Positions 3,830-42,508 of a DNA stretch of 64,000 bases are shown in pieces. The position numbers and the translations under genes were made by a program. The notes under the pieces were generated by a model. It ran no database searches. It saw nothing but the letters and a program-made list of their open reading frames with translations, and was not told the DNA's origin. The stretch comes from Enterocloster bolteae. GTDB taxonomy: Bacteria > Bacillota > Clostridia > Lachnospirales > Lachnospiraceae. The DNA lies in contig JAETNT010000005.1 of NCBI GenBank assembly GCA_021772025.1, positions 41,267 to 105,266 of the forward strand, in the 5' to 3' direction. Within the stretch, counting starts at the first letter, position 1; each line of letters starts with the position of its first letter.

Positions 3830-6331
3830 ATGGATAAAAAACTATATGATTTAATGGACTGGGCAGGCATTGAAGAGCTGGTTTATTCTGAGGCTGTAAA
3901 TCCGCACGGGATTTTGGGCCCCCATATCACAGAGGATGGGGTTCTGGTTCAGATGATGATGCCTACTGCCAAGGAGGCGGCAGTGGTAGTCGGCTCCAAA
4001 GAATATCCCATGGAGCTGGCAGATGAGGCAGGCTTTTTTGCTGCTCTGCTTCCAAGAAAGACCATTCCGGAATATACCTTAAAAGTTACCTTTGACAATG
4101 ACGTTACCAAAAAATTTAAAGATCCGTATGCTTTTGCACCTCAGATTTCCGAAACAGATTTAAAGAAGTTTGAGGCCGGAATCCACTATGAGATTTATGA
4201 TAAATTAGGTGCCCACCCCATGACCATTAATGGAGTGGCAGGCGTTTACTTTGCAGTTTGGGCGCCATGTGCTCTTCGCGTCAGTGTAGTGGGGGACTTT
4301 AACCTGTGGGACGGCCGCCGCAATCAGATGCGCCGCTTAGGAGACTCCGGAGTTTTTGAGATTTTTATGCCGGGGCTGCCTGAAGGAAGCTTATATAAAT
4401 ACGAGGTAAGATGTAAGAACGGCGATCCTATTTTAAAGGCAGATCCATATGCAAGCTATTCTGAATTGCGCCCCAATACGGCATCTGTTGTTTGGGATAC
4501 CAGTAGGTATCAGTGGAAGGATCAGGACTGGATGAAAAAGCGGGCAGGCGAAGATTTAAAGAGCAAGCCTATGGCTATTTATGAAGTACATTTGGGTTCC
4601 TGGATGCGAAAAGAACTTGCTTTGGATGAAGAAGGCAGGGAGATTATCGGCTCCGAATTTTATAATTACAGAGAGATTGCGGTAAAGCTGGCAGAATATG
4701 TGAAAGAGATGGGGTACACCCATGTAGAATTAATGCCGGTTATGGAGCATCCTTTGGATGCCTCTTGGGGCTATCAGGTTACCAGTTACTATGCGCCTAC
4801 CAGCCGTTATGGCACTCCGGATGATTTTATGTATTTTATGGATTACATGCACGGACAGGGGATCGGCGTGATTCTAGATTGGGTGCCGGCTCATTTTCCA
4901 AGAGATTCTTACGGCTTGGCTGCTTTTGACGGTACCTGCGTATATGAGCATGCCGATCCGCGCCAGGGCGCCCATCCTCATTGGGGAACTCTGATTTATA
5001 ATTACGGCAGGCCTCAGGTATCCAACTTCCTTATTGCAAATGCACTGTTTTGGGCGGAAAAGTACCACGCAGACGGCATCCGTATGGATGCGGTGGCATC
5101 TATGCTGTACCTGGATTATGGAAAAAATGACGGTGAGTGGGTCGCTAATATCTACGGCGGACATGAGAATCTGGAAGCAGTAGAATTCTTAAAGCATTTG
5201 AATTCTGTATTTAAAGGCCGTACAGGAGGGGCAATTCTCATCGCAGAAGAATCTACCGCATGGCCAAAGATTACAGGAGACGTAAAGGAAAATGGCCTGG
5301 GCTTTGATTATAAATGGAATATGGGATGGATGAACGATTTCCTGAATTATATGAAATGTGATCCGTATTTCCGCAAGAATAATTATGGGCAGCTTACATT
5401 TTCCATGCTGTATGCTTATAGTGAGAACTTTGTGCTGGTATTTTCCCATGATGAAGTAGTTCACGGGAAAGGCTCCATGATTGGCAAAATGCCCGGAGAA
5501 ACTTTGGAACAGAAGGCGGCTAATCTTCGGGTTGCATATGGTTTCTATATGGGGCATCCCGGCAAGAAGCTTTTGTTTATGGGGCAGGATTTTGCTCAGG
5601 TAGATGAGTGGAATGAGGATGTCAGTCTGGAGTGGGATCTTCTGCAATATCCGGTTCACAGCCAGACTCAAGCTTTTATGAAGGCTTTAAACGCTCTTTA
5701 TGCAAAATATCCGGCTCTGTCCCAGCTGGATTATGATCCGGATGGCTTTGAGTGGATGAATTGCTCTTATAATGAGCTGAGTATGGCGATGTTTGTAAGA
5801 AAAACGAAGAAGCCGGAGGATACACTGCTTTTTGTCTGCAACTTTGATAATATGGAACATAAAAAATTCCGGGTGGGAGTTCCCTTTGCAGGAAAGTATA
5901 AAGAAATTTTAAGCAGCGATGCAGCAGAATACGGCGGATCCGGCATGGTGAATGCCAGAGTAAAAGTTTCTAAAAAGATCGAATGGGATGAGCAGGAAAA
6001 TTCTATTGAGATTGACATTGCTCCTATGAGTGTCAGCATTTTTACCTGCGCTCCGGAGGAAGAGAAAAAGACAGAACAGACAAAAAGAACTAAAACGGCT
6101 CATGTCAAAAAAAGTACAGAGCCTGTAAAGAAGACGGCAGGAAAAACGGATAAACCCGTGACAAAAGTGGAGAAAGCTGTATCAAAAGCGGAGAAATCTA
6201 CAGAAAAAGTGGGAAAATTAGCAGTAAAAACAGAGAAACCAGCAACGAAAATGGGGAAACCTGTGGAAAAAGCGGAGAAGTCCGCAGGGAAGTCCGCACC
6301 GGCAAAGGCTGCAGGTAAGAAAAGAAAATAG
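3830..6331 (+). CDS. glgB: 1,4-alpha-glucan branching enzyme with atypical ~95-aa lysine-rich C-terminal extension
   Basis: GH13 branching-enzyme motifs (GVILDWVPAHF, GIRMDAVASMLY, AEESTAWP). It is 833 aa, about 100 aa longer than typical GlgB, ending in KxxK-type repeats. Confidence 0.9.
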   Translation: MDKKLYDLMDWAGIEELVYSEAVNPHGILGPHITEDGVLVQMMMPTAKEAAVVVGSKEYPMELADEAGFFAALLPRKTIPEYTLKVTFDNDVTKKFKDPYAFAPQISETDLKKFEAGIHYEIYDKLGAHPMTINGVAGVYFAVWAPCALRVSVVGDFNLWDGRRNQMRRLGDSGVFEIFMPGLPEGSLYKYEVRCKNGDPILKADPYASYSELRPNTASVVWDTSRYQWKDQDWMKKRAGEDLKSKPMAIYEVHLGSWMRKELALDEEGREIIGSEFYNYREIAVKLAEYVKEMGYTHVELMPVMEHPLDASWGYQVTSYYAPTSRYGTPDDFMYFMDYMHGQGIGVILDWVPAHFPRDSYGLAAFDGTCVYEHADPRQGAHPHWGTLIYNYGRPQVSNFLIANALFWAEKYHADGIRMDAVASMLYLDYGKNDGEWVANIYGGHENLEAVEFLKHLNSVFKGRTGGAILIAEESTAWPKITGDVKENGLGFDYKWNMGWMNDFLNYMKCDPYFRKNNYGQLTFSMLYAYSENFVLVFSHDEVVHGKGSMIGKMPGETLEQKAANLRVAYGFYMGHPGKKLLFMGQDFAQVDEWNEDVSLEWDLLQYPVHSQTQAFMKALNALYAKYPALSQLDYDPDGFEWMNCSYNELSMAMFVRKTKKPEDTLLFVCNFDNMEHKKFRVGVPFAGKYKEILSSDAAEYGGSGMVNARVKVSKKIEWDEQENSIEIDIAPMSVSIFTCAPEEEKKTEQTKRTKTAHVKKSTEPVKKTAGKTDKPVTKVEKAVSKAEKSTEKVGKLAVKTEKPATKMGKPVEKAEKSAGKSAPAKAAGKKRK

Positions 6332-31348: not shown

Positions 31349-32653
31349 ATGGGAATTATAAAAGCAGTGGCAACGGCAGTAAAAGGCGGTCTTAGCGATC
31401 AGTGGCTGGAGATTATGGAGGCCGGAGATATGGGCGGACAGACCGTATTTACAGCAGGCGTAAAGATTCGAAAAGGATCTAATGAAAAAGGAACAGACAA
31501 TACGGTGTCCAATGGCTCCGTGATCCATGTTTATCCCAATCAGTTTATGATGCTGGTGGACGGCGGACGGGTAGTGGACTATACGGCGGAGGAAGGGTAC
31601 TATACGGTGAATAGTTCTTCCATGCCGTCTTTATTTAACGGCCAGTTTGGGGAGGCATTAAAGGAATCCTTTGCAAGAATTAAGTTTGGAGGGGGGACTT
31701 CCCTGGCTCAAAAAGTATTTTTTGTCAATCTTCAGGAGATTAAAGGAATTAAGTTTGGAACCAGAACGCCTATCAACTATTTTGATAATTTTTACAATGC
31801 GGAATTGTTTCTCCGAACCCATGGAACCTATTCTGTCAAAGTGACAGATCCGCTGAAATTTTACCGGGAGGTTATCCCGAAAAATGCCAGCAAGGTGGAA
31901 ATTGATCAGATTAACGGCCAATTCCTGGATGAATTTTTAGAGGCGCTGCAAAGTTCTATTAATCAGATGTCGGCAGACGGTATCCGGATTTCCTATGTTT
32001 CTTCAAAAGGCCGGGAGCTGGGGAAGTATATGGCGGAAACTCTGGATGAAGAGTGGAAACAGATGCGAGGGATGGAGATCCAGTCCGTGGGGATCGGAAG
32101 CATTTCCTATGACGAAGAATCCCAGAATTTGATTAATATGCGTAACAAAGGGGCTATGATGGGAGATCCTCTTGTAAGAGAAGGGTATGTTCAGAGCACC
32201 GTAGCGGAAGGCGTAAAGGGGGCCGGTTTAAATTCTTCCGGAGCAGTATCCGGATTCATGGGAATGGGCCTGGGAATGCAGGCAGGAGGCGGTTTTATGA
32301 ATACGGCTTCCAACACCAACCTTCAGCAAATGCAGATGAATCAAGCGGCCCGGATGGCTCAGGAGAGCCAGGCTTCTGGAGGAAATCAGATGAATCGGCC
32401 TGTGGGAACGGGACAGATAAATCAGCAGCCCGGCACGGAACAAACCGCTTGGCAGGAAGCAGGGAGACCGGCAGGAGGAAAGACACCAGGAGGAACTTCG
32501 TGGTTTTGCCCTAACTGCGGGACGCAGGGAACAGGTAATTTCTGCAGCGAATGCGGTGAACCAAAACCGGCTCCGGCCCAGTGGACCTGCTCCAAATGCG
32601 GAAACGTAAATACAGGAAAGTTCTGCTCCAACTGCGGAACACCCAGAGGATAA
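31349..32653 (+). CDS. SPFH-like (YdjI-type, virion-core-protein-like) protein with Met/Gln-rich linker and C-terminal double zinc ribbon
   Basis: Same architecture as B. subtilis YdjI: SPFH-like core, low-complexity MGMGLGMQAGG...QQMQMNQ, then CPNCG...CSECG and CSKCG...CSNCG. Confidence 0.6.
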   Translation: MGIIKAVATAVKGGLSDQWLEIMEAGDMGGQTVFTAGVKIRKGSNEKGTDNTVSNGSVIHVYPNQFMMLVDGGRVVDYTAEEGYYTVNSSSMPSLFNGQFGEALKESFARIKFGGGTSLAQKVFFVNLQEIKGIKFGTRTPINYFDNFYNAELFLRTHGTYSVKVTDPLKFYREVIPKNASKVEIDQINGQFLDEFLEALQSSINQMSADGIRISYVSSKGRELGKYMAETLDEEWKQMRGMEIQSVGIGSISYDEESQNLINMRNKGAMMGDPLVREGYVQSTVAEGVKGAGLNSSGAVSGFMGMGLGMQAGGGFMNTASNTNLQQMQMNQAARMAQESQASGGNQMNRPVGTGQINQQPGTEQTAWQEAGRPAGGKTPGGTSWFCPNCGTQGTGNFCSECGEPKPAPAQWTCSKCGNVNTGKFCSNCGTPRG

Positions 32654-32671
32654 ACCAGGAGTAAAAAGAAT

Positions 32672-33700
32672 ATGCCAGCAATTACCTATCAATGCCCTAA
32701 CTGCGGAGGAGGACTGCTGTTTGATCCGGAGTCCCAGAAATATAAATGTGAATACTGCCTGAGTTTGTTTTCTGAGGCGGATTTAAAAGATTTGTTTGAG
32801 AAAGAAGAGAGCCGGAAAGAACCTCAGGCCATGGTGATTTATAATTGCCCAAGCTGCGGGGCAGAGATTGTTACGGATGATACGACAGCGGCCTCCTTCT
32901 GCTATTACTGCCACAATCCGGTGGTTCTTTCCGGGCGACTGGAAGGACAGTTTGCTCCGGATCAGATTATTCCGTTTGCCATTAACAGAGAAAAGGCAGT
33001 AGAAATCTTTAATCAGTGGATCGGCAGAAAGCGCTTTGTATCCAAATCCTTTTATTCTCCGGATCAGATCGAAAAAATTACCGGAGTATACTTCCCTTAT
33101 TGGCTCTATAGCTGCCAGGTTCACGGGGAGCTGAATGGAGTGGGAGATCAGATAGAGGTACATACTCTGGGAGGAGTCCGCAGTACGGAAACCAGGCGTT
33201 ACCGTATCCGCAGAGAGGGAGAAATGGATATAAACAATGTGCCCCGTAATGCATTAAAGAAAGCAAACCATGAAATTATTGAAGGGGTGCTGCCGTTTCA
33301 TACAGGAAGGCTGAAGCCCTTTTCTATGGGATATCTAACCGGCTTTTTCGCTGAAAAGAGGGACATAGAGTGGGAAGAATTCCAGAAGGAAATGACGGAG
33401 GAGATGAGACAATATGCCACGGAATCCCTGCGGGCCAGCGTAGAAAACTATAGCCAAATTCAGGTAGAGGGAACAGATATCCGGATAACAGAAGAAAAAT
33501 GGCATTACGCTCTGCTACCCGTCTGGACGCTGACATACCGGGATGAAAAGGACGGAAAAGTGTACTACTTTGCCTTAAACGGAGACAGCGGAAAGGTCTG
33601 CGGCCGTCTGCCGGTAGATAAAAAGCGGCTGCTGGGATTGTTCGCTGCCGTCTTCTTTCCCGTGTTTATTGCTCTGCTGATAGGAGGGTATCTGATATGA
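32672..33700 (+). CDS. Zinc-ribbon membrane protein (YdjG-like): two N-terminal Cys4 ribbons, C-terminal TM helix
   Basis: CPNCGG...CEYC and CPSCG...CYYC. C-terminal TM LLGLFAAVFFPVFIALLIGGYLI. Confidence 0.6.
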   Translation: MPAITYQCPNCGGGLLFDPESQKYKCEYCLSLFSEADLKDLFEKEESRKEPQAMVIYNCPSCGAEIVTDDTTAASFCYYCHNPVVLSGRLEGQFAPDQIIPFAINREKAVEIFNQWIGRKRFVSKSFYSPDQIEKITGVYFPYWLYSCQVHGELNGVGDQIEVHTLGGVRSTETRRYRIRREGEMDINNVPRNALKKANHEIIEGVLPFHTGRLKPFSMGYLTGFFAEKRDIEWEEFQKEMTEEMRQYATESLRASVENYSQIQVEGTDIRITEEKWHYALLPVWTLTYRDEKDGKVYYFALNGDSGKVCGRLPVDKKRLLGLFAAVFFPVFIALLIGGYLI

Positions 33701-34590
33701 AAAACAGAGAGAGTGAAAAAACAGCTGCAGCTATCGTCTGGGGGATGATTCTGACGCTGGCTTTCGGGATAACGGCATGGGCTGCTTCTGCCCCGGAAGA
33801 AGGGGAAATTTCTTTACGACAGAGGGTTTACGATATGGCCGGGATTTTTTCTCAGGCGGAAGAGAAGAGCCTGGAGGATATGGCGGCCCGGATATCCGAA
33901 GAAAACGGGGCAGAACTGATCATTGCCTCTACAGATGAAACAGGAGGAAAGACCACAGCGGAATTTGCGGATGATTTTTATGAGCAGGGCGGATTTGGAG
34001 CCGGAAAAGACCACAGCGGAGCCTTGTTTTTAATTGACATGGAAAACCGGTATTATTGGATTTCTACAGAAGGAAAAATGACCCGGTATCTGACAGACAG
34101 CCGGATAGAGTCTGTTTTAGACGGAGATGTAGCGGAATTTATGGCTGACGGCAGATATGGGGATGCGGCGGAAGCATTTTTAAAGGATACCGAAAGCTGG
34201 ATTCGGAAAGGGATCCCAAAAGGTCAATATCTTTATGACGAAGAAACAGGGAAAATAAGCGTATACCGGAGTATTACCTGGTATGAGGCGTTGTTTGCCT
34301 TTGCTGCTGCCTGCGGAGCCGGAATTTTGGCCTGCCGCGGCGTAATAAAGGAATATGCCCTGAAGGCAGATCCCAGAGCCAGGCGGAATCAGGATTTGGC
34401 TTACCGCGCAGAAGCTGCGTATGCACTCCTTCCCTTTACGGATCAATTGATTGATCAGAAGGTGATTCGCCAGGCCATTCCCCGTTCCCATCCATCTGGA
34501 GGCGGGACAGGAGGAAGTCGCCCGGGTCGGACTACTGTGCATCATTCCAGTAGCGGGAGAAGCCATGGAGGAGGGGGAAGAAAGTTTTAA
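33697..34590 (+). CDS. TPM-domain (TLP18.3/Psb32/MOLO-1) protein with signal peptide, TM helix and Gly-rich tail (YdjH/YgcG-like)
   Basis: Signal peptide; TPM-like region AELIIASTDETGGKTTAEFADDFYEQGGFGAGKDHSGALFLID; C-terminal GGGTGGSRPG...GGGGRKF. Overlaps the upstream gene by 4 nt. Confidence 0.65.
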   Translation: MKNRESEKTAAAIVWGMILTLAFGITAWAASAPEEGEISLRQRVYDMAGIFSQAEEKSLEDMAARISEENGAELIIASTDETGGKTTAEFADDFYEQGGFGAGKDHSGALFLIDMENRYYWISTEGKMTRYLTDSRIESVLDGDVAEFMADGRYGDAAEAFLKDTESWIRKGIPKGQYLYDEETGKISVYRSITWYEALFAFAAACGAGILACRGVIKEYALKADPRARRNQDLAYRAEAAYALLPFTDQLIDQKVIRQAIPRSHPSGGGTGGSRPGRTTVHHSSSGRSHGGGGRKF

Positions 34591-34674: not shown

Positions 34675-36555
34675 TTAAAATGCATGAAATACTGCCGTGA
34701 TTCCGATACACAGAGTGATTCCTAAAAGAGTAGGTAAAAGTATTGCTGCTGCAGTCCATTTATAAGATCCGGTTTCTTTCCGGATAGTTAGTACCGTAGT
34801 GGAGCATGGCCAGTGGAACAGGGAAAAAACCAGCATGGAAACTGCTGTCTGCCAGGTCCAGCCCTGAGCAAGAAGAAGATTCTTGAGAGCCATATTGTCA
34901 TTCATTTCCACCAAAACCCCGGATTGAAGATAGGCCATAAGGATAATAGGAAGTACAATCTCATTTGCCGGAAAGCCCAGCAGGAATCCAACCAAAATTA
35001 CCCCGTCCAATCCCATAAGCCGCCCCAAAGGATCGAAAATTCCTGTAAGAACAGTAAGAAGAGCGGGAGCAGATTCTGCAGTTTCCTGTCCGGTCAGGGC
35101 AAAATACCCGCACTGGGGACCGACATAAGAGATATTTGCCAATACCCAGATAAAAAGCCCGGCCGGGGCCGCAATTGCAACTGCTCTTCCAAGCACAAAC
35201 AGAGTTCTGTCGAAAATAGACCGGATAATCACTTTTCCGATCTGAGGCCGCCGGTAGGGCGGAAGCTCCAAAGTAAAGGAAGAGGGAATTCCTTTTAGCA
35301 GTGTGTGAGATAAAATCCATGAGGCCCCCAATGTGGCAAAGATTCCCAGAAGGATCACTGCGGTTAAGCATAAAGCTGCTGAGAGAGAACCCCAAAAAGA
35401 GCCCTGAAACCCTGCAACAAAAAACAGAGTAATCATCGTAAACAGTGTAGGAAAACGTCCGTTGCAGGGAATCATAGAGTTGGTCAAAATGGCAATAAGC
35501 CGCTCTCTGGGAGAATCAATAATTCGGCATCCCACTACTGCCGCCGCATTGCATCCCAATCCCATAGCCATAGTCAGGCACTGCTTTCCACAGGACTTGC
35601 ACCGTTCAAAAGCTCTGTCCATATTAAAAGCAACCCTGGGAAGGTATCCCAGATCTTCCAGAAGGGTAAACAGAGGAAAGAAAATAGCCATAGGAGGCAG
35701 CATTACCGAGATCACCCAGGCCAGAACACGGTAAATCCCGTAAACCAGACATCCGGTAAGCCACTCCGGCGCATGGAAGGCAGCCATCAGAGCTGCCAGC
35801 TTCCCTTCCATTTGGAATAAGGAATCCCATAATAACCGGGAAGGATAATTAGCTCCGCTCATAGTAAGCCAGAAAATCAATAAGAGCAGACCGATCATAA
35901 TCAGCTTTCCGCTTATTTTTCCGGTGACAATCCGATCTATCAGCTCTTCCCGTCTGCGGATGCTTGAACTGTCACAGGATACGGTTTCTGCTGCCAGAAT
36001 TTTGGGAGAAAAATCCAGGCAATCATAAGAGAACCTTTGACTGCAGGCTTCTAAAACGGCCTGCCGGATATACAGGAGGGATTGGCTGTCTCTGGCACAG
36101 CAGGGAACCACCGGGATTTGAAGCACATCCTGAAGCAGAAGAAAGTCAATAGAAATCCCCTTTTTTGCCGCTTCATCACACAGATTCACACACAATACAA
36201 TAGGAGTGCCCTGCTCCTTTACATAATCTAAGCGAGTAATTTGAGATAAAAGATGCAGGCCCCGTTCCAGACAGGTAGCATCGCAGACTACTACGATGAT
36301 ATCTGCCTGGCCGGAGCAGATATACTCTTTGGCAATCTCCTCTTCCTCCGAATGGGCGTTAAGAGAATATGTTCCGGGAAGATCCACCAGAAGAAATTCC
36401 TTCCCGCCATATTGATAAGTACCCTGAGCGGAAGCGACGGTTTTTCCGATCCAATTTCCGGTGTGCTGTCTCAGACCGGTAAGACCATTGAAAATGCTGC
36501 TTTTTCCCACATTAGGATTCCCGGCCAAAGCTGCGATAATGCGTCCGTCCTCCAT
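34675..36555 (-). CDS. feoB: Ferrous iron transport protein B
   Basis: N-terminal G domain GNPNVGKSSIFN, DLPGTYSL, then a polytopic permease domain. No feoA upstream. Confidence 0.9.
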   Translation of the reverse strand: MEDGRIIAALAGNPNVGKSSIFNGLTGLRQHTGNWIGKTVASAQGTYQYGGKEFLLVDLPGTYSLNAHSEEEEIAKEYICSGQADIIVVVCDATCLERGLHLLSQITRLDYVKEQGTPIVLCVNLCDEAAKKGISIDFLLLQDVLQIPVVPCCARDSQSLLYIRQAVLEACSQRFSYDCLDFSPKILAAETVSCDSSSIRRREELIDRIVTGKISGKLIMIGLLLLIFWLTMSGANYPSRLLWDSLFQMEGKLAALMAAFHAPEWLTGCLVYGIYRVLAWVISVMLPPMAIFFPLFTLLEDLGYLPRVAFNMDRAFERCKSCGKQCLTMAMGLGCNAAAVVGCRIIDSPRERLIAILTNSMIPCNGRFPTLFTMITLFFVAGFQGSFWGSLSAALCLTAVILLGIFATLGASWILSHTLLKGIPSSFTLELPPYRRPQIGKVIIRSIFDRTLFVLGRAVAIAAPAGLFIWVLANISYVGPQCGYFALTGQETAESAPALLTVLTGIFDPLGRLMGLDGVILVGFLLGFPANEIVLPIILMAYLQSGVLVEMNDNMALKNLLLAQGWTWQTAVSMLVFSLFHWPCSTTVLTIRKETGSYKWTAAAILLPTLLGITLCIGITAVFHAF

Positions 36556-36683
36556 AAAATACCTCCATAATTACCACTAATATCCCGCTATAGGGACACA
36601 GTGGAAGCCTTATTGTTTAAATATGAAGGGGGACAGGAGAGAGTGCTATTCCGAGAATGCTTTCATGCAGTAATCTGTCGCCT

Positions 36684-36712
36684 TTGACAAAACTCCCGCT
36701 CAAGTATATGAT
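36684..36712 (+). promoter_or_regulatory. Sigma-A promoter (TTGACA-17-TATGAT) upstream of the TetM-like GTPase gene
   Basis: TTGACA at 36684-89, 17-nt spacer, TATGAT at 36707-12, about 58 nt upstream of the start. Confidence 0.6.
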
Positions 36713-36769
36713 ATTGTTAGTCATAGGAACCTGCCCAAGATGTTATGAATCAGAGAGGAAATGAAATCT

Positions 36770-38785
36770 ATGAGAAAGACCTTTGGAGTCCTGGCCCACG
36801 TAGATGGCGGAAAAACTACATTTTCGGAACAGCTTTTATACCATGCCGGAGTAATCCAGGCAGCAGGCCGGGTGGATCAGGGAAATACGGTAATGGACAA
36901 AGACGCGGTGGAAAAGGCCAGAGGCATCACGATTTATGCAGATCAGAGCCGGTTTGAATACGGCGGGGATGAGTATTATTTTTTAGACACCCCGGGGCAT
37001 GTGGATTTTTCGGCGGAGACGGAACGGGCGGTGACAGTTTTGGACTATGCCATTCTGCTGGTAGATGCATCCTCCGGCGTGGCGGCCCATACGGTTACTC
37101 TGTTTCGGATGCTGAAACGGTTCCAGGTGCCGGTATTTTTCTTTTTGAATAAAACAGATTTGAATACGGCCGATTTGGAACGCACTATGAACGAAATAAG
37201 GCAACGGCTGACAGAAGATATTATTCTGGTGGAAGCGCCTTTGGATAAGGAGATACCGGAAGAACTGACTGAGTTTGCCGCCGGGCGGGATGAAAACATA
37301 ATGGAAGACTACCTGGAAGGGCGTCTTATTGAAAGAGAGCGTATTCTGGCATCTCTAAAAAAGATCATCAAAGAGAGAAGCGGTTTTCTCTGTATGAAGG
37401 GCTCTGCTTTAAAAGATCAGGGAGTGGCAGAATTTTTCCAAGTATTCCATCAACTGACAGAAACCGGCTATCAGGAAGAAACCCCCTTTTTCGGCCGGGT
37501 GTATAAGGTACGTCATGACCCGGATGGACAGCGTATCGTATATATCAAGGTTCTGTCCGGCAAACTAGAGATACGGGATCCGATCTATGTGCTAAAAGAA
37601 GGGATAGACAGCGAAACAGAGAACCAGGCTGCATTATCAGGTGAAAAGATTCATCAGATCCGGATTTATTCCGGGAAGAAAAGCCGGACAGCGGATAAGG
37701 CCTTGGCAGGCAGTCTTTGTGCAGTTACGGGATTAAGCCAGCCAAAGTGCCAGGACATGGTAGCCGGATTAAAGGAGACGGGGATACAGGAAGCCATTAG
37801 GATGCGGCCTCAGCTTCAGATGCGCCCGGCTTTCCAAGCGCAGGCGACCCCAGGGAATACGGACAGCCACACCCTGTTTACTCAGCTGAAGCTTTTAGAG
37901 GATGAGGAGCCCGGGCTGTCTGCTGAGTGCGGGGAAGACAGGAGCCTGCTGGTAAGCGTAATGGGAAAGATCCAGCTGGAGGTTCTGGTTCAGGTGTTAA
38001 AAGAGCGGTTTGGCACAGATGCTGCATTTTCCCCTCCAAAGGTTTCTTACCGGGAAACCATTGCCGCGCCGGTAATGGGTTTTGGCCACTATGAACCGCT
38101 GCGCCACTACGCGGAAGTTCATCTGCGCCTGGAACCTGCACCAAGAGGAAGCGGCATTGCCTTTACCAGCGAATGCCATGTAGATACCTTGGGGATAAAC
38201 TATCAGAATCTGATTAAAACTCATGTATTTGAGAAGGTTCATAAGGGCGTACTTACGGGATCCCCGCTGACAGATGTAAAAATTATCCTTACTGCCGGCC
38301 GTTCTCATTTAAAGCATACCGAAGGCGGCGACTTCAGAGAGGCAACCTATCGGGCTGTCCGCCAAGGCCTGGAGAAGGCTGAAAATATTCTTTTGGAACC
38401 CTGGTACCGGTTTGAAATTGCTGCTCCGGAGGAATATACAGGAAGGCTTATGGCGGATATTCAAAAGCGGTCCGGAATATTTGAAACGCCTGAACACGGC
38501 GGCGGTACAGTGTCAATATCAGGGAGCGGTCCGGCTGCTGCTTTTATGGATTATGGAGTGGAGCTGGCGGCAGCTACCAGAGGATCCGGCAGCATTTCTA
38601 TGGTTTGGGAAGGCTATCGGGAATGTCACAATACAGAAGAAGTGCTTGCGGAATATGATTATGATAAAGGAGCAGACAAAGAAAACACCTCATCTTCGGT
38701 TTTCTGTTCCCATGGAGCCGGATTTGTGGTAAACTGGAATGAAGTAGAACAATACATTCACCTGCCGGCGGAGAACATTGATTAG
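36770..38785 (+). CDS. TetM/TetO-like translational GTPase (ribosomal-protection-protein family, distant member)
   Basis: G-domain motifs GVLAHVDGGKTTFSEQLLY, DTPGH and NKTD, with EF-G-like domains II-V. By my alignment the G domain is about 45% identical to Tet(M). ATG at 36770 is 11 nt after GAGAGG; the ATG at 36761 is too close. Confidence 0.75.
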   Translation: MRKTFGVLAHVDGGKTTFSEQLLYHAGVIQAAGRVDQGNTVMDKDAVEKARGITIYADQSRFEYGGDEYYFLDTPGHVDFSAETERAVTVLDYAILLVDASSGVAAHTVTLFRMLKRFQVPVFFFLNKTDLNTADLERTMNEIRQRLTEDIILVEAPLDKEIPEELTEFAAGRDENIMEDYLEGRLIERERILASLKKIIKERSGFLCMKGSALKDQGVAEFFQVFHQLTETGYQEETPFFGRVYKVRHDPDGQRIVYIKVLSGKLEIRDPIYVLKEGIDSETENQAALSGEKIHQIRIYSGKKSRTADKALAGSLCAVTGLSQPKCQDMVAGLKETGIQEAIRMRPQLQMRPAFQAQATPGNTDSHTLFTQLKLLEDEEPGLSAECGEDRSLLVSVMGKIQLEVLVQVLKERFGTDAAFSPPKVSYRETIAAPVMGFGHYEPLRHYAEVHLRLEPAPRGSGIAFTSECHVDTLGINYQNLIKTHVFEKVHKGVLTGSPLTDVKIILTAGRSHLKHTEGGDFREATYRAVRQGLEKAENILLEPWYRFEIAAPEEYTGRLMADIQKRSGIFETPEHGGGTVSISGSGPAAAFMDYGVELAAATRGSGSISMVWEGYRECHNTEEVLAEYDYDKGADKENTSSSVFCSHGAGFVVNWNEVEQYIHLPAENID

Positions 38786-38860
38786 GGATACTTTCAGTGG
38801 ATACAAACGAAAGGACGGAGTTAATACCCCACTGAAAACAGCAGGGGAACGGAGAAACAA

Positions 38861-40909
38861 ATGGAAACATCGGATTACTTAGGAAATTATTACGAAGAAC
38901 TGTTTTTTGGACATGTGAATCGCCGGTATCGTGCCATGACCACCGGCGAAATGAAGAAAAGAGCGGAAAAGCTATGTCAGGAGACATTGGACGGAATTGG
39001 AAAGGCCAATGAGCTAAGCGATATCCACGCCATGCTGTCAAAGGTCTGCGCTTACCTGATGCACAAGGAGCATACGGTTCGGACGGGTGAGCAGAAGGCG
39101 GCAATTGAAGCCTACACAATCCAGGCAAAAGAATTTTGCCGTCTCCTGGCAGAGACGGATTTACAATTCCTTCCTCCATTAAGCATAGAGGAACTGGAAC
39201 AGGTTTTAAAAATGCAGGGGATCCGCCGTTACCTGCTGACGAATTCTCTGGAGCGTGCTTATCAGCTCTTTTATATTCCCAAGACCATTGAGAGAGGAAT
39301 TTCCGCCTCCATGGAAAAACGGCCGGAGGATGAATATCCGGAGGCCAGGGCAATGAAACGGAAATTTGTCCTCCATATCGGACCCACCAACAGCGGAAAA
39401 ACTCATGATGCACTGGAGCGGCTAAAGCAGTCCTCCCACGGCGCTTATTTTGGACCTTTGCGCCTTCTGGCTTTGGAGGTTTATGATAAATGCAACGGGG
39501 AACAAGTTCCCTGCTCTATGATAACCGGAGAGGAGACTATTGAAGTGCCTGGTGCGGTCTGCCAATCCTGCACTGTGGAGATGCTCAATGATCATGAATA
39601 TTTTGATATTGTGGTGGTAGATGAGTGCCAAATGGTAGGAGATCCTTACCGGGGGCACAACTGGACCCGGGCTATTTTAGGGCTTCGCGCGGAGGAGATT
39701 CACCTTTGCATGGCTCCTGAAGCGGAATCCATTATTACGCAGATGATTAAGCGCTGCGGCGACAGCTACAGGATTGTACGCCACAAAAGGAATACCCGTC
39801 TGACCGTAGAGCGGCGGCCTTATTCTATGGTAAGCGATCTGAGAAAAGGCGATGCCCTAATCGTATTTTCAAAAAAATCAGTACTGGCTTTGGCGGCTCA
39901 CCTGGAAAAACAAGGGATTTCCTGCAGCGTGATTTACGGGAGCCTTCCGCCGGCTACACGCAGGGAACAGGTCCGAAGATTTTTGGAAAAAGAGACGGAT
40001 ATCGTAGTCAGTACCGATGCCATTGGAATGGGCTTAAATCTTCCTATCCGCCGTATTGTCTTTGTAGAAACCGCTAAATTTGACGGTGTGGTAAAACGTA
40101 CCCTGGAGCCGACAGAAATCAAGCAGATTGCCGGCCGGGCCGGCCGCTTCGGTATTTATGAGGAAGGATTTGTCGCTGCCATTGATGGGATTGAGATTAT
40201 TGAGGACGGCCTTTCCCGCCTTCCTGTGCCGATTATGAAAGCCTATGTAGGATTTCCTGAGCAGCTTTTGGAACTTCCGGCGGAGATTGACAACTTGATT
40301 AAGATTTGGGCTTCCATGGATGCACCGGCCATTTATCAGAAGATGGAGGTTGATGAGCTTTTAGCCCTGTACCAGCATTTTCTTATGGTTCATCGGGACA
40401 GACTGAACGAATTTGCCAAGCCGGAGATTTATAAGCTAATTACCTGTGCCATTGACATTAACAATAAGCTGGTAGTGGATCTGTGGAAGGATTACTGCCG
40501 GGAATACCGGGAGGTGGACGAACTGGAATTTCCCTACAGCCCCGGCCCGGATTTATATGACTTGGAGAGCTATTACAAGATGCTGGATCTGTACTTCCAG
40601 TTTTCCAGAAAGGCGGGACTGCCTGTTCAGACTGAAAATCTTACACAGGAGCGCCATGAGACGGAAGAAGAAATCAGCCGCATCCTGAAAACCGAGTGCG
40701 GCAGCTATTCCCGGAAATGCTCTGCATGCGGCAGGGAGCTTGCATGGGACTATCCCTTCTCTATCTGTGAAAAATGCTTTGAGCGCGGTAAGAACGAGAG
40801 ACCCAGACGGGGGCACCGCTATGGAAATGGAGGAAACCATGGCTCCCATAACGGAAATTCCGGAAGGGAAGGCGGTCAGGGCCGCGGGCGGCGGTATGGG
40901 CATAGGTAA
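38861..40909 (+). CDS. Suv3-like SF2 RNA helicase with N-terminal unknown domain and C-terminal zinc ribbon plus Gly/Arg-rich tail
   Basis: Motif I GPTNSGKTH, motif II VVVDECQMVGDPYRGHNWTRAILGL (human SUPV3L1 has IDEIQM...RGWAWTRALLGL), motif VI QIAGRAGR. C-terminus CSACGRELAWDYPFSICEKC then RPRRGHRYGNGGNHGSHNGNSGREGGQGRGRRYGHR. Confidence 0.7.
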   Translation: METSDYLGNYYEELFFGHVNRRYRAMTTGEMKKRAEKLCQETLDGIGKANELSDIHAMLSKVCAYLMHKEHTVRTGEQKAAIEAYTIQAKEFCRLLAETDLQFLPPLSIEELEQVLKMQGIRRYLLTNSLERAYQLFYIPKTIERGISASMEKRPEDEYPEARAMKRKFVLHIGPTNSGKTHDALERLKQSSHGAYFGPLRLLALEVYDKCNGEQVPCSMITGEETIEVPGAVCQSCTVEMLNDHEYFDIVVVDECQMVGDPYRGHNWTRAILGLRAEEIHLCMAPEAESIITQMIKRCGDSYRIVRHKRNTRLTVERRPYSMVSDLRKGDALIVFSKKSVLALAAHLEKQGISCSVIYGSLPPATRREQVRRFLEKETDIVVSTDAIGMGLNLPIRRIVFVETAKFDGVVKRTLEPTEIKQIAGRAGRFGIYEEGFVAAIDGIEIIEDGLSRLPVPIMKAYVGFPEQLLELPAEIDNLIKIWASMDAPAIYQKMEVDELLALYQHFLMVHRDRLNEFAKPEIYKLITCAIDINNKLVVDLWKDYCREYREVDELEFPYSPGPDLYDLESYYKMLDLYFQFSRKAGLPVQTENLTQERHETEEEISRILKTECGSYSRKCSACGRELAWDYPFSICEKCFERGKNERPRRGHRYGNGGNHGSHNGNSGREGGQGRGRRYGHR

Positions 40910-41096
40910 TGATGCCGAACCTGAACTATGATGTCCCCCAAGATAAACTGGATGCTCAGATAGAATGATAAGGAACCCTCTGTCAGACGGTACATGAGAA
41001 CGTCTGATAGGGGGTATTTATCATGTACCTTTGCACTTTTATAATAATTAGAGAGTGTTCAATGTCTTTTCATTTTGCTAATCCCCGCCTGCTCAA

Positions 41097-41657
41097 TCAT
41101 CCGTATATTGCAACTCCAAGTACCGCCGATATGATAATAGTCATAATAGGAGATACTTTTTTCTTTTTTATCACTTTTCCCCCCCATAAGAGAACCGCCA
41201 AGATTATTGTCAGGATGAGGGGCTGTGTTTTTACAGATATTTCACCTGACAATGTAATTAAATTGCCAAGAATCATATAAACGCCAGTAGCAAGGATGAT
41301 TCCCACAACACAGGGTTTTATCCCCTTCAGGATTGCCTGGACATATTTGTTTTTAATCAGCGTTTTCAGCGCTGCCGTTACAAGAAGAATAATGATATAA
41401 GAGGGGAGAATTACTGCTGATGTAGCAATAATTGAACCCCAGAGCCCTCCCTGGCTGCTGCCGATGTAGGTGGCAAGATTCACCATAATAGGGCCGGGGG
41501 TGCTTTCGCTGACTGCAATCATATAGGTCAGGGTGTCTTCGTTCAGCCAGCCATAAGACAATACAACATCGCGGATAAGGGGGATGGCGCCGTATGCACC
41601 GCCAAAGGCGAAACAGCCTACACGCAGAAAGCCGAGAAACAGATCAAGATAAATCAT
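41097..41657 (-). CDS. Chromate transporter family protein, short-chain CHR half, second gene of pair
   Basis: ChrA-like hydrophobic protein MIYLDLFLGFLRVGCFAFGGAYGAIPLI. Start overlaps the upstream partner by 4 nt (ATGA). Confidence 0.75.
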   Translation of the reverse strand: MIYLDLFLGFLRVGCFAFGGAYGAIPLIRDVVLSYGWLNEDTLTYMIAVSESTPGPIMVNLATYIGSSQGGLWGSIIATSAVILPSYIIILLVTAALKTLIKNKYVQAILKGIKPCVVGIILATGVYMILGNLITLSGEISVKTQPLILTIILAVLLWGGKVIKKKKVSPIMTIIISAVLGVAIYG

Positions 41658-42268: not shown

Positions 42269-42508
42269 TTATTTTTGAGAAACCAATATTTCTACTGCAT
42301 TTTTGTCCCGTAGGGCAATTACTGCACAGCGTACCAGATAAGCGGACATGGATCCGTTTTTTCCTTTCAGTACGCAGGTTACCGTTTCTCCGGGGACAAA
42401 GCCCAGGTCGTAGAGACGGAGAGAAATGCTGTCATCACCGGCAAGAAAAGCCACTTGAGCCTGCTGACCGGCTTCTATTTGATTTAATGGAAGAACCATG
42501 GAATTCAC
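42269..42508 (-). CDS. feoA: FeoA-domain protein (SH3-like small iron-transport-associated protein)
   Basis: LNQIEAGQQAQVAFL...LRLYDLGFVPGETVTCVLKGKNGSMSAYLVRCAVIALRDKNAVEILV fits the FeoA pattern. Confidence 0.7.
   Translation of the reverse strand: MNSMVLPLNQIEAGQQAQVAFLAGDDSISLRLYDLGFVPGETVTCVLKGKNGSMSAYLVRCAVIALRDKNAVEILVSQK

Follow-up and report, generated by a model that had tools for sequence, protein, structure and literature searches.

In the 64,000-nucleotide stretch of Enterocloster bolteae DNA analysed here (the window), a gene for a translational GTPase is followed on the same strand, after a gap of 75 bp, by a gene for a Suv3-family RNA helicase, and the two appear to form a chromosomal two-gene operon of the Lachnospiraceae (Enterocloster/'Clostridium' group) that, judging from its layout, would be read as one transcript. 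A preliminary, sequence-only reading had described two co-oriented genes behind one promoter with no terminator between them, and both open reading frames (ORFs), their spacing and this arrangement were confirmed (Table 1). The second ATG of the GTPase ORF (MRKTFG...) is favoured as the real start, since it is conserved in an alignment of the upstream region with three relatives. The best promoter-like site of the region matches 11 of the 12 positions of the sigma-70-type elements, and a -10-like element lies at the same position in relatives; it should be noted that promoter-like sites are no commoner in this region than in shuffled sequence (8 found versus 6.0 expected). A terminator scan of the + strand of the spacer between the genes found no terminator-like site, and the 75-nt spacer folds weakly (z -1.6). 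Just past the helicase stop codon, a hairpin of -37.6 kcal/mol (z -3.87; 0 of 200 shuffles as stable) is probably the intrinsic terminator of the operon, and it was overlooked by the simple terminator scan because its loop is 11 nt long. An Rfam scan of positions 36400-41300 at E<=1 returned zero matches, and there is therefore no leader or riboswitch; a tRNA scan of the window found none. The upstream neighbour of the pair is feoB on the opposite strand, and downstream, also on the opposite strand, lie two chromate-transporter genes, feoA and sfsA. The promoter-like site, the terminator-free spacer, the 3' hairpin and the ordinary flanks thus fit a self-contained bicistronic operon. A horizontal-transfer island was considered as well, and was ruled out by the unremarkable base composition of the locus and the housekeeping genes that flank it.

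Table 1. Features of the GTPase-helicase locus (positions in the window).
Feature	Position	Strand	Remark
Sigma-70-type promoter-like site	36684..36712	+	TTGACA-17 nt-TATGAT; predicted
GTPase ORF	36761..38785	+	674 residues; likely start ATG 36770
G domain	36794..37414	+	G1 AHVDGGKT, G2 RGITI, G3 DTPGH, G4 NKTD and G5 GSALK intact
Domain-IV tip loop	38312..38338	+	KHTEGGDFR, a family signature, in place of Tet(M) YSPVSTPADFR
C-terminal extension of the GTPase	38621..38785	+	CHN...SVFCSHGAGF...W..E.YIH; family-specific, absent from Tet(M) and EF-G
Intergenic spacer	38786..38860	+	75 bp; predicted GGAG ribosome-binding site
Helicase ORF	38861..40909	+	682 residues
N-terminal all-helical domain	38861..39310	+	residues 1-150; helices predicted with high confidence, no Pfam match
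Helicase core	39323..40153	+	DEXQc_Suv3, residues 155-307; Helicase_C, residues 328-431
SUV3_C domain	40553..40690	+	residues 565-610; Pfam 34.4 bits, cut-off 27
Cys4 zinc ribbon	40718..40777	+	residues 620-639; CSAC-12 residues-CEKC; predicted to bind metal
Gly/Arg/Asn/His-rich low-complexity tail	40781..40906	+	residues 641-682; 42 residues, of which 13 are Gly and 10 Arg
15-bp hairpin, then a U-rich run (UAUUUAU)	about 40975..41022	+	probable intrinsic terminator

The product of the second gene is, by domain scores, motifs and predicted fold, a bona fide Suv3-family superfamily 2 RNA helicase, as the sequence-only reading had held. In addition to SUV3_C, the Pfam models DEXQc_Suv3 (PF22527; 215.9 bits against a cut-off of 27, matching positions 1-153 of 154) and Helicase_C (60.6 bits against 23.5) were recovered; the motifs GPTNSGKT, DECQ, TRAILG and QIAGRAGR are present, and the core motif columns are invariant in an alignment of helicase relatives (A1). 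Human SUPV3L1 (6e-73) and yeast Suv3 (1.6e-70) are the closest sequences in the PDB. An AlphaFold2 model built from 32 relatives reached a mean predicted local distance difference test score (pLDDT) of 88.6 and a predicted template-modelling (TM) score of 0.80, and a Foldseek search with it placed human Suv3 at the top (3rc3; E 7e-42; TM 0.65/0.73; 28% identity over 630 columns), with human and yeast Suv3 as the best matches (E 7e-42 to 5e-27) and Ski2 and Mtr4 next, at 3e-15. The DEXQ-box RecA core, SUV3_C and the multi-domain fold are thus common to the window helicase and Suv3/SUPV3L1 (PDB 3rc3, 6f4a); however, the window protein is bacterial and cytoplasmic rather than part of a mitochondrial degradosome, carries a zinc ribbon and a Gly/Arg tail after SUV3_C, has an N-terminal domain dissimilar in sequence, has no PNPase or Dss1 partner encoded nearby, and belongs to a family that in some lineages is paired with a translational GTPase.

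The terminal regions of the helicase evolve differently from its core. The N-terminal domain had been taken as a domain of unknown function, and it is helical and without a Pfam match, with a sequence that varies across the family in alignment A1; but because its helices are confidently predicted and the Foldseek alignment to human Suv3 covers 630 columns, it is probably the counterpart of the Suv3 N-terminal domain and not an unrelated one. At the other end, the claimed Cys4 ribbon held: conservation of C620, C623, C636 and C639 reaches at least 90% among 32 relatives with identities as low as 35%, which marks the predicted zinc ribbon as characteristic of this bacterial Suv3 clade. The Gly/Arg-rich tail is present, but its length and sequence differ even among close relatives and most of the distant ones are without it; it is predicted to be disordered, with pLDDT below 50 from residue 648 on. 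Nor is a clostridial Suv3 the exception that had been supposed. Suv3-type helicases form 2308 clusters at 50% identity in Firmicutes (E<=1e-30), and the loci fetched came mainly from Lachnospiraceae and also from Oscillospiraceae, Butyricicoccus, Erysipelotrichaceae and one Bacillus, the proteins being named 'helicase-related protein' or 'SUPV3L1/SUV3' in their sources. Nine homologues of 958-1189 residues have N-terminal extensions, in which a Pfam scan for informative fusions found no domains.

The first gene encodes, on the evidence of its sequence, a translational GTPase of the EF-G/EF2 superfamily that belongs to a distinct clostridial 'Tet-like' subfamily. The Pfam models GTP_EFTU, EF-G_D2, EFG_III, EFG_IV and EFG_C describe the five-domain architecture of EF-G, four of the five scoring above the gathering threshold and EFG_III remaining under it (23.9 bits, cut-off 27), and the G1-G5 columns are invariant or nearly so in an alignment of the GTPase family (A5). 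The AlphaFold2 model has a pLDDT of 84.8, and all 50 of the top 50 PDB folds are EF-G or EF-G paralogues. Three subfamily motifs, GH[YF]EPLRH, KHTEGGDF and SVFCxHGAGF, are all found in the window GTPase and are invariant in alignment A5 and in a second family alignment (A2), where the full tip loop KHTEGGDFR is invariant too. The subfamily was found in Lachnospiraceae, Subdoligranulum, Monoglobus, Paenibacillus and Ligilactobacillus.

Membership in the Tet(M)/Tet(O) family had been proposed for this protein from a G-domain identity of about 45%. The superfamily stands, but the closer assignment does not: the G domain (residues 8-277) is 34.9% identical to that of Tet(M) and the full-length protein 28-29.5%, and the full-length values for Tet(M), Tet(O), Tet(W), Tet(S) and TetB(P) (28-30%) are matched by that for fusA (about 27%), which makes the GTPase as close to EF-G as to Tet by sequence. 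The best NCBIfam model, tet_protect, gave 382.4 bits against a cut-off of 775, the TetM/W/O/S model 276.2 against 1100 and the Tet(M) model 234 against 1420; two EF-G models also failed (353.6 against 583 and 285.9 against 659.4). For domains IV-V, the match to EF-G (81 bits) outscores those to Tet(O) (61) and Tet(M) (53). In Tet(M), loop III of domain IV reaches the tetracycline site and dislodges the drug (PMC4342817). In the direct alignment this loop, YYSPVSTPADFR, reads SHLKHTEGGDFR in the window GTPase, and the latter is invariant in the family, Tet(M) YYSPVSTPA being replaced by SHLKHTEGG; the histidine-containing tip loop aligns with the His loop of EF-G. The Tet alignments end near residue 620 of the GTPase, as Tet(M) is without the last 50 or so residues, which are modelled as a helix, a beta-hairpin and a helix at a pLDDT of about 70. 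The window GTPase therefore shares with Tet(M)/Tet(O) five EF-G-like domains, a short G' region and a single full-length alignment, but lacks the conserved loop III, carries a 50-residue C-terminal extension and is encoded on the chromosome rather than on a mobile element; with EF-G and EF-G2 paralogues it shares the fold and the His-containing domain-IV tip, but is only about 27% identical, has a shortened G' region and has its own C-terminal extension. By these cut-offs and by the missing loop, it does not count among the Tet(M)-type resistance proteins. Relatives, the NYN fusions described below included, carry the public name 'TetM/TetW/TetO/TetS family tetracycline resistance ribosomal protection protein' (P0408, P0412, P0455, L093:5989-8790 and L094:5968-7902). 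Because the window member falls far under the curated Tet cut-offs and is without the Tet(M) loop, this naming of the subfamily is probably an over-annotation.

The conservation of the pair was assessed from both genes. A helicase-centred sample of 80 genome loci, found with alignment A1 and reduced to about 65 informative loci by about 15 that were short of upstream sequence, had a GTPase gene within 6 kb in 6 of 80, always upstream and on the same strand. Look-ups of close relatives of the GTPase found the helicase next door in five of six, either directly adjacent (P0136, P0449, P0408 and P0472) or behind one small DUF6483 gene (P0211). The linked loci comprise an unfused group, clade A (the window, L001, L087 and L089, together with L010 and L097, which have an inserted PDDEXK_2 gene), and a group in which the GTPase is fused to an NYN domain, clade B (L013, L064, L016, L081, L083 and L085). 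In a neighbour-joining (NJ) tree the linked GTPases fall into two separate clades (A: window, L001, L087, L010, L089; B: L013, L016, L081, L083, L085), each nested among unlinked relatives, and the linked helicases likewise form two clades interspersed with unlinked ones. The upstream flank is FeoB in clade A and CobS or asparaginase in clade B, where the downstream flank is ACPS-SpoVAD. GTPase and helicase genes are separated by 7-110 bp in most loci and by 267 bp in L085, and within each clade GTPase and helicase co-diverge. The GTPase diverges faster while its G motifs are kept, the window and L001 being 70% identical in the GTPase and 92% in the helicase; another linked-pair comparison, from the set of the window against L001, L087, L010 and L089, gave 59% and 76%. 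The pairing could have arisen by two independent gains or by one ancient linkage that persisted, with changing flanks, down to about 45% identity, and under either history the association is hard to ascribe to chance. The claim of a conserved pair therefore stands for related genomes and for a second, distant clade, but not for either family at large, and the association is clearly facultative and frequently lost.

Other neighbours were also surveyed. When the neighbours of 80 helicase and 80 GTPase loci were clustered, no other recurrent partner of related function appeared; the recurrent neighbours were unrelated housekeeping genes only (ACPS, YitT, permease, SfsA, CobS, MatE, LacI), and no PNPase or RNase R gene was adjacent to the helicase in the 80 helicase loci. 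Besides the GTPase, translation is represented among the neighbours only by a gene for a SpoU-family rRNA methylase, which four loci (L038:3578-4423, L042, L046 and L053) carry at about 1.5 kb upstream of the helicase. In one sub-clade a gene for a 131-residue DUF6483 protein lies just upstream of the helicase and abuts or overlaps its start (L004:5500-5895, L005, L006, L008, L010:5567-5959, L097:5995-6387, L089:7176-7571 and L090), whether or not a GTPase gene lies still further upstream. The window has no such gene, and DUF6483, tried as a match to the helicase N-terminus or the window, showed no similarity. Genes of the PD-(D/E)XK type also occur just upstream of the helicase, where they split the pair or replace the GTPase (L010:4391-5314; L097, between the GTPase and DUF6483; L009; L002), and they are of PDDEXK_2 transposase-like, YhcG/DUF1016 and AAA-ATPase_like+PDDEXK_9 kinds. 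By sequence comparison, this position looks like an insertion hot spot.

The fused GTPases of clade B may connect the subfamily to mRNA cleavage on the ribosome. In L013, L064 and L016 the orthologous GTPase is 949-1005 residues long and ends in an NYN_YacP domain, which scores 166-167 bits in L013 and L016, a strong match to the domain of Bacillus subtilis Rae1/YacP; domain and linker join the protein at the C-terminal extension. This domain (PF05991) was present in 120 of the 120 best clusters related to the L013 protein and in 67 of 80 GTPase family members from metagenomes, 13 being without it. The window GTPase is 40-45% identical to these clostridial 'Tet'-NYN_YacP fusions and shares their KHTEGGDFR loop, GHYEPLRH motif and SVFCxHGAGF extension, but ends after the extension. 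Rae1 itself is a single-domain protein, whereas the sister lineages tether the domain to the GTPase. The fusion has been noticed before: Atkinson 2015 noted the NYN-fused clostridial proteins and put them in the Tet subfamily (PMC4342817), and Matelska 2017 noted the same fusion (PMC5499597), function being tested in neither paper. In B. subtilis, Rae1/YacP cuts mRNA on ribosomes that have stalled or collided, an activity that feeds rescue by transfer-messenger RNA (tmRNA) (PMC12407103, PMC13622287). HrpA, the known bacterial collision helicase, overlaps with Rae1 across phyla only to a limited extent, and Firmicutes are not among the phyla in which HrpA conservation was reported (PMC13622287).

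Taken together, these data are best explained, at a probability of roughly 0.4, if the pair is an accessory rather than essential module for ribosome-associated mRNA surveillance and not a tetracycline-resistance determinant. The G motifs and helicase motifs of the window pair are intact, and the modelled GTPase fold is that of factors that bind the ribosomal A site. A module of this kind, for ribosome rescue or RNA surveillance, had been suggested from the window alone; the occurrence of an NYN-fused GTPase in the second, distant linked clade lends independent weight to it, although the pairing is not general. In this mechanism the GTPase would bind to ribosomes that have stalled or collided, occupying their factor-binding site and A site like EF-G, Tet(M) and Hbs1/Ski7-type factors. 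In fused lineages it would place a Rae1-type nuclease on the mRNA; the unfused window protein may act with a separate nuclease, or may only remodel or mark the ribosome. The Suv3 helicase would then load on the freed 3' single-stranded mRNA and unwind or pull it, after which exonucleases would clear the mRNA and the ribosome would be recycled, for example by tmRNA. Structures of Tet(M) on the ribosome show factors of this type with their C-terminus near the decoding centre. An NYN domain tethered at the GTPase C-terminus would for that reason sit close to A-site mRNA.

A bolder form of the surveillance proposal, which is doubtful, would make the GTPase (with NYN fused or in trans) and the helicase the bacterial counterpart of Hbs1/Ski7, an endonuclease and Ski2, the helicase being HrpA-like: the GTPase would recognise stalled or collided ribosomes, the mRNA would be cut, and the helicase would extract and clear it. 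The likeness is one of working principle, in that Ski2-Ski7/Hbs1-Dom34 decay combines a factor of the translational-GTPase family, an endonuclease and a Ski2-related 3'-5' helicase, and E. coli HrpA is a helicase that pulls mRNA from stalled ribosomes; no homology is claimed with either system beyond the superfamily level.

Several observations weigh against a surveillance module. The helicase is unlinked in 74 of its 80 loci. In a GTPase-centred sample, obtained by scanning metagenomes with the family-specific motifs (80 loci, about 53 informative), the helicase was near the GTPase in one locus and unlinked in 79, and in the genomes of Agathobacter rectalis, Monoglobus and Ligilactobacillus the two were linked in none of three. 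Relatives with a 76-81% identical helicase lack the GTPase at the same locus: at the same FeoB...helicase position, L009 has a YhcG-type nuclease gene (4493-5542) in its place and L002 an AAA-ATPase/PDDEXK_9 gene (4376-5953). Simple NJ trees do not distinguish two gains from one ancient linkage with many losses. Finally, the window GTPase belongs to the unfused branch and stops at the end of its extension, and no NYN domain is encoded anywhere in the 64 kb searched.

The main rival of the surveillance reading, although itself rather unlikely, is coincidental synteny. Under this view the helicase would serve general RNA decay and the GTPase would be a translation factor working by itself, two functionally independent housekeeping or accessory genes that only by chance came to be neighbours on one transcript in some Lachnospiraceae. 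It draws on the same observations: linkage is absent from most members of the two families, each gene is usually surrounded by unrelated ones, and near relatives such as L009 and L002 have lost the GTPase from this locus or carry another gene in its place. However, two clades that are distant in both trees and differ in their flanks have these two families side by side, on one strand and in one order. By a rough estimate (about 1/6000 per lineage and about 50 lineages), one such event would have a chance probability below 1e-2 and two below 1e-4, while one old linkage that survived down to about 45% identity would in its turn point to selection. The short intergenic gaps and the co-divergence of the pair also speak against coincidence.

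Ribosome biogenesis or bulk RNA turnover, with the GTPase as an assembly- or hibernation-type factor and the helicase as a degradosome-like partner of PNPase or an RNase, is improbable. Suv3 does act with PNPase or Dss1 in mitochondrial RNA decay (PMC5818665, PMC10253155), YacP/NYN was first tied to rRNA and tRNA processing by operon context (PMC5499597), and 4 helicase loci have a SpoU rRNA methylase gene nearby; but experiments tie Rae1 to translating, stalled ribosomes (PMC12407103, PMC13622287), and no RNase, PNPase or assembly gene is among the recurrent neighbours.

Less probable still is an anti-phage or stress-triggered translation shutdown, in which the GTPase would sense the ribosomes of infected cells and an RNase and the helicase would destroy RNA. 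The patchy distribution and frequent loss of the pair, the much faster evolution of the GTPase than of the helicase (70% against 92% identity), the repeated insertion of PDDEXK-type selfish genes at the locus and the RNase domain in sister lineages would all suit such a role, which the sequence-only reading had also raised. Against it, no specific match was found in PADLOC-DB (none for the GTPase, and for the helicase only weak generic helicase C-domain matches to DpdF and HamB, at no more than 41 bits), the synteny by FeoB or CobS is stable and chromosomal, there are no defence-island neighbours, and base composition is unremarkable. Tetracycline ribosomal protection of the Tet(M)/Tet(O) kind with an accessory helicase, the antibiotic-tolerance role of that reading, is the least credible of all: tet_protect is the best NCBIfam model, NCBI names relatives accordingly and Atkinson 2015 assigned the NYN fusions to the Tet subfamily (PMC4342817), but the scores of 382 bits against 775 and 276 against 1100, the 28-30% identity to Tet proteins beside 27% to EF-G, the replacement of the Tet(M) loop by an invariant SHLKHTEGG, the better EF-G score of domains IV-V and the chromosomal, non-mobile context all stand against it.

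A few further features of the surroundings were recorded. In the window, feoB (34675-36555, - strand) and feoA (42269-42508, - strand) are about 5.7 kb apart, parted by the pair and the two chromate-transporter genes. In L091 and L092 (1344-8376), FeoB is split into FeoB_C and FeoB_N pieces around a serine recombinase, a Sel1 gene and the GTPase, a layout that points to rearrangement by a recombinase. Upstream of feoB, at 31349-34590 on the + strand, three co-oriented genes may be a membrane-associated module; they encode an SPFH/Band-7 protein, a TPM-domain protein with a Gly-rich tail, and a 342-residue protein with zinc-ribbon-like CxxC pairs at its N-terminus and a membrane helix at its C-terminus. 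An antisense ORF of 271 residues (38598-39413, - strand) runs across the spacer and overlaps the genes on both sides, at the 3' end of the GTPase gene and the 5' end of the helicase gene, and is most likely spurious.

Both gene families, and the GTPase-NYN fusion, were already known. Not found in the searchable literature were a link of the GTPase-NYN fusion to a helicase, the recurrent linkage of this GTPase subfamily to bacterial Suv3, the family-wide zinc ribbon of bacterial Suv3, and a reinterpretation of the 'Tet-like' proteins in light of Rae1 biology. The rescue of collided ribosomes in Gram-positive bacteria is only now being worked out, with Rae1 and tmRNA reported in 2025-2026, and in that work no helicase arm comparable to E. 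coli HrpA was reported for Firmicutes. The locus ties a large and abundant family of EF-G-like GTPases of gut bacteria, often fused to a Rae1-type nuclease, to a bacterial Suv3 helicase, and this linkage yields a concrete, genetically testable hypothesis, the value of which is tempered by the patchy linkage and the nuclease-free window copy. Furthermore, because these GTPases are routinely labelled 'TetM/TetW/TetO/TetS' though failing curated criteria, resistance-gene counts in gut metagenomes may be inflated, a point of relevance to resistome surveys.

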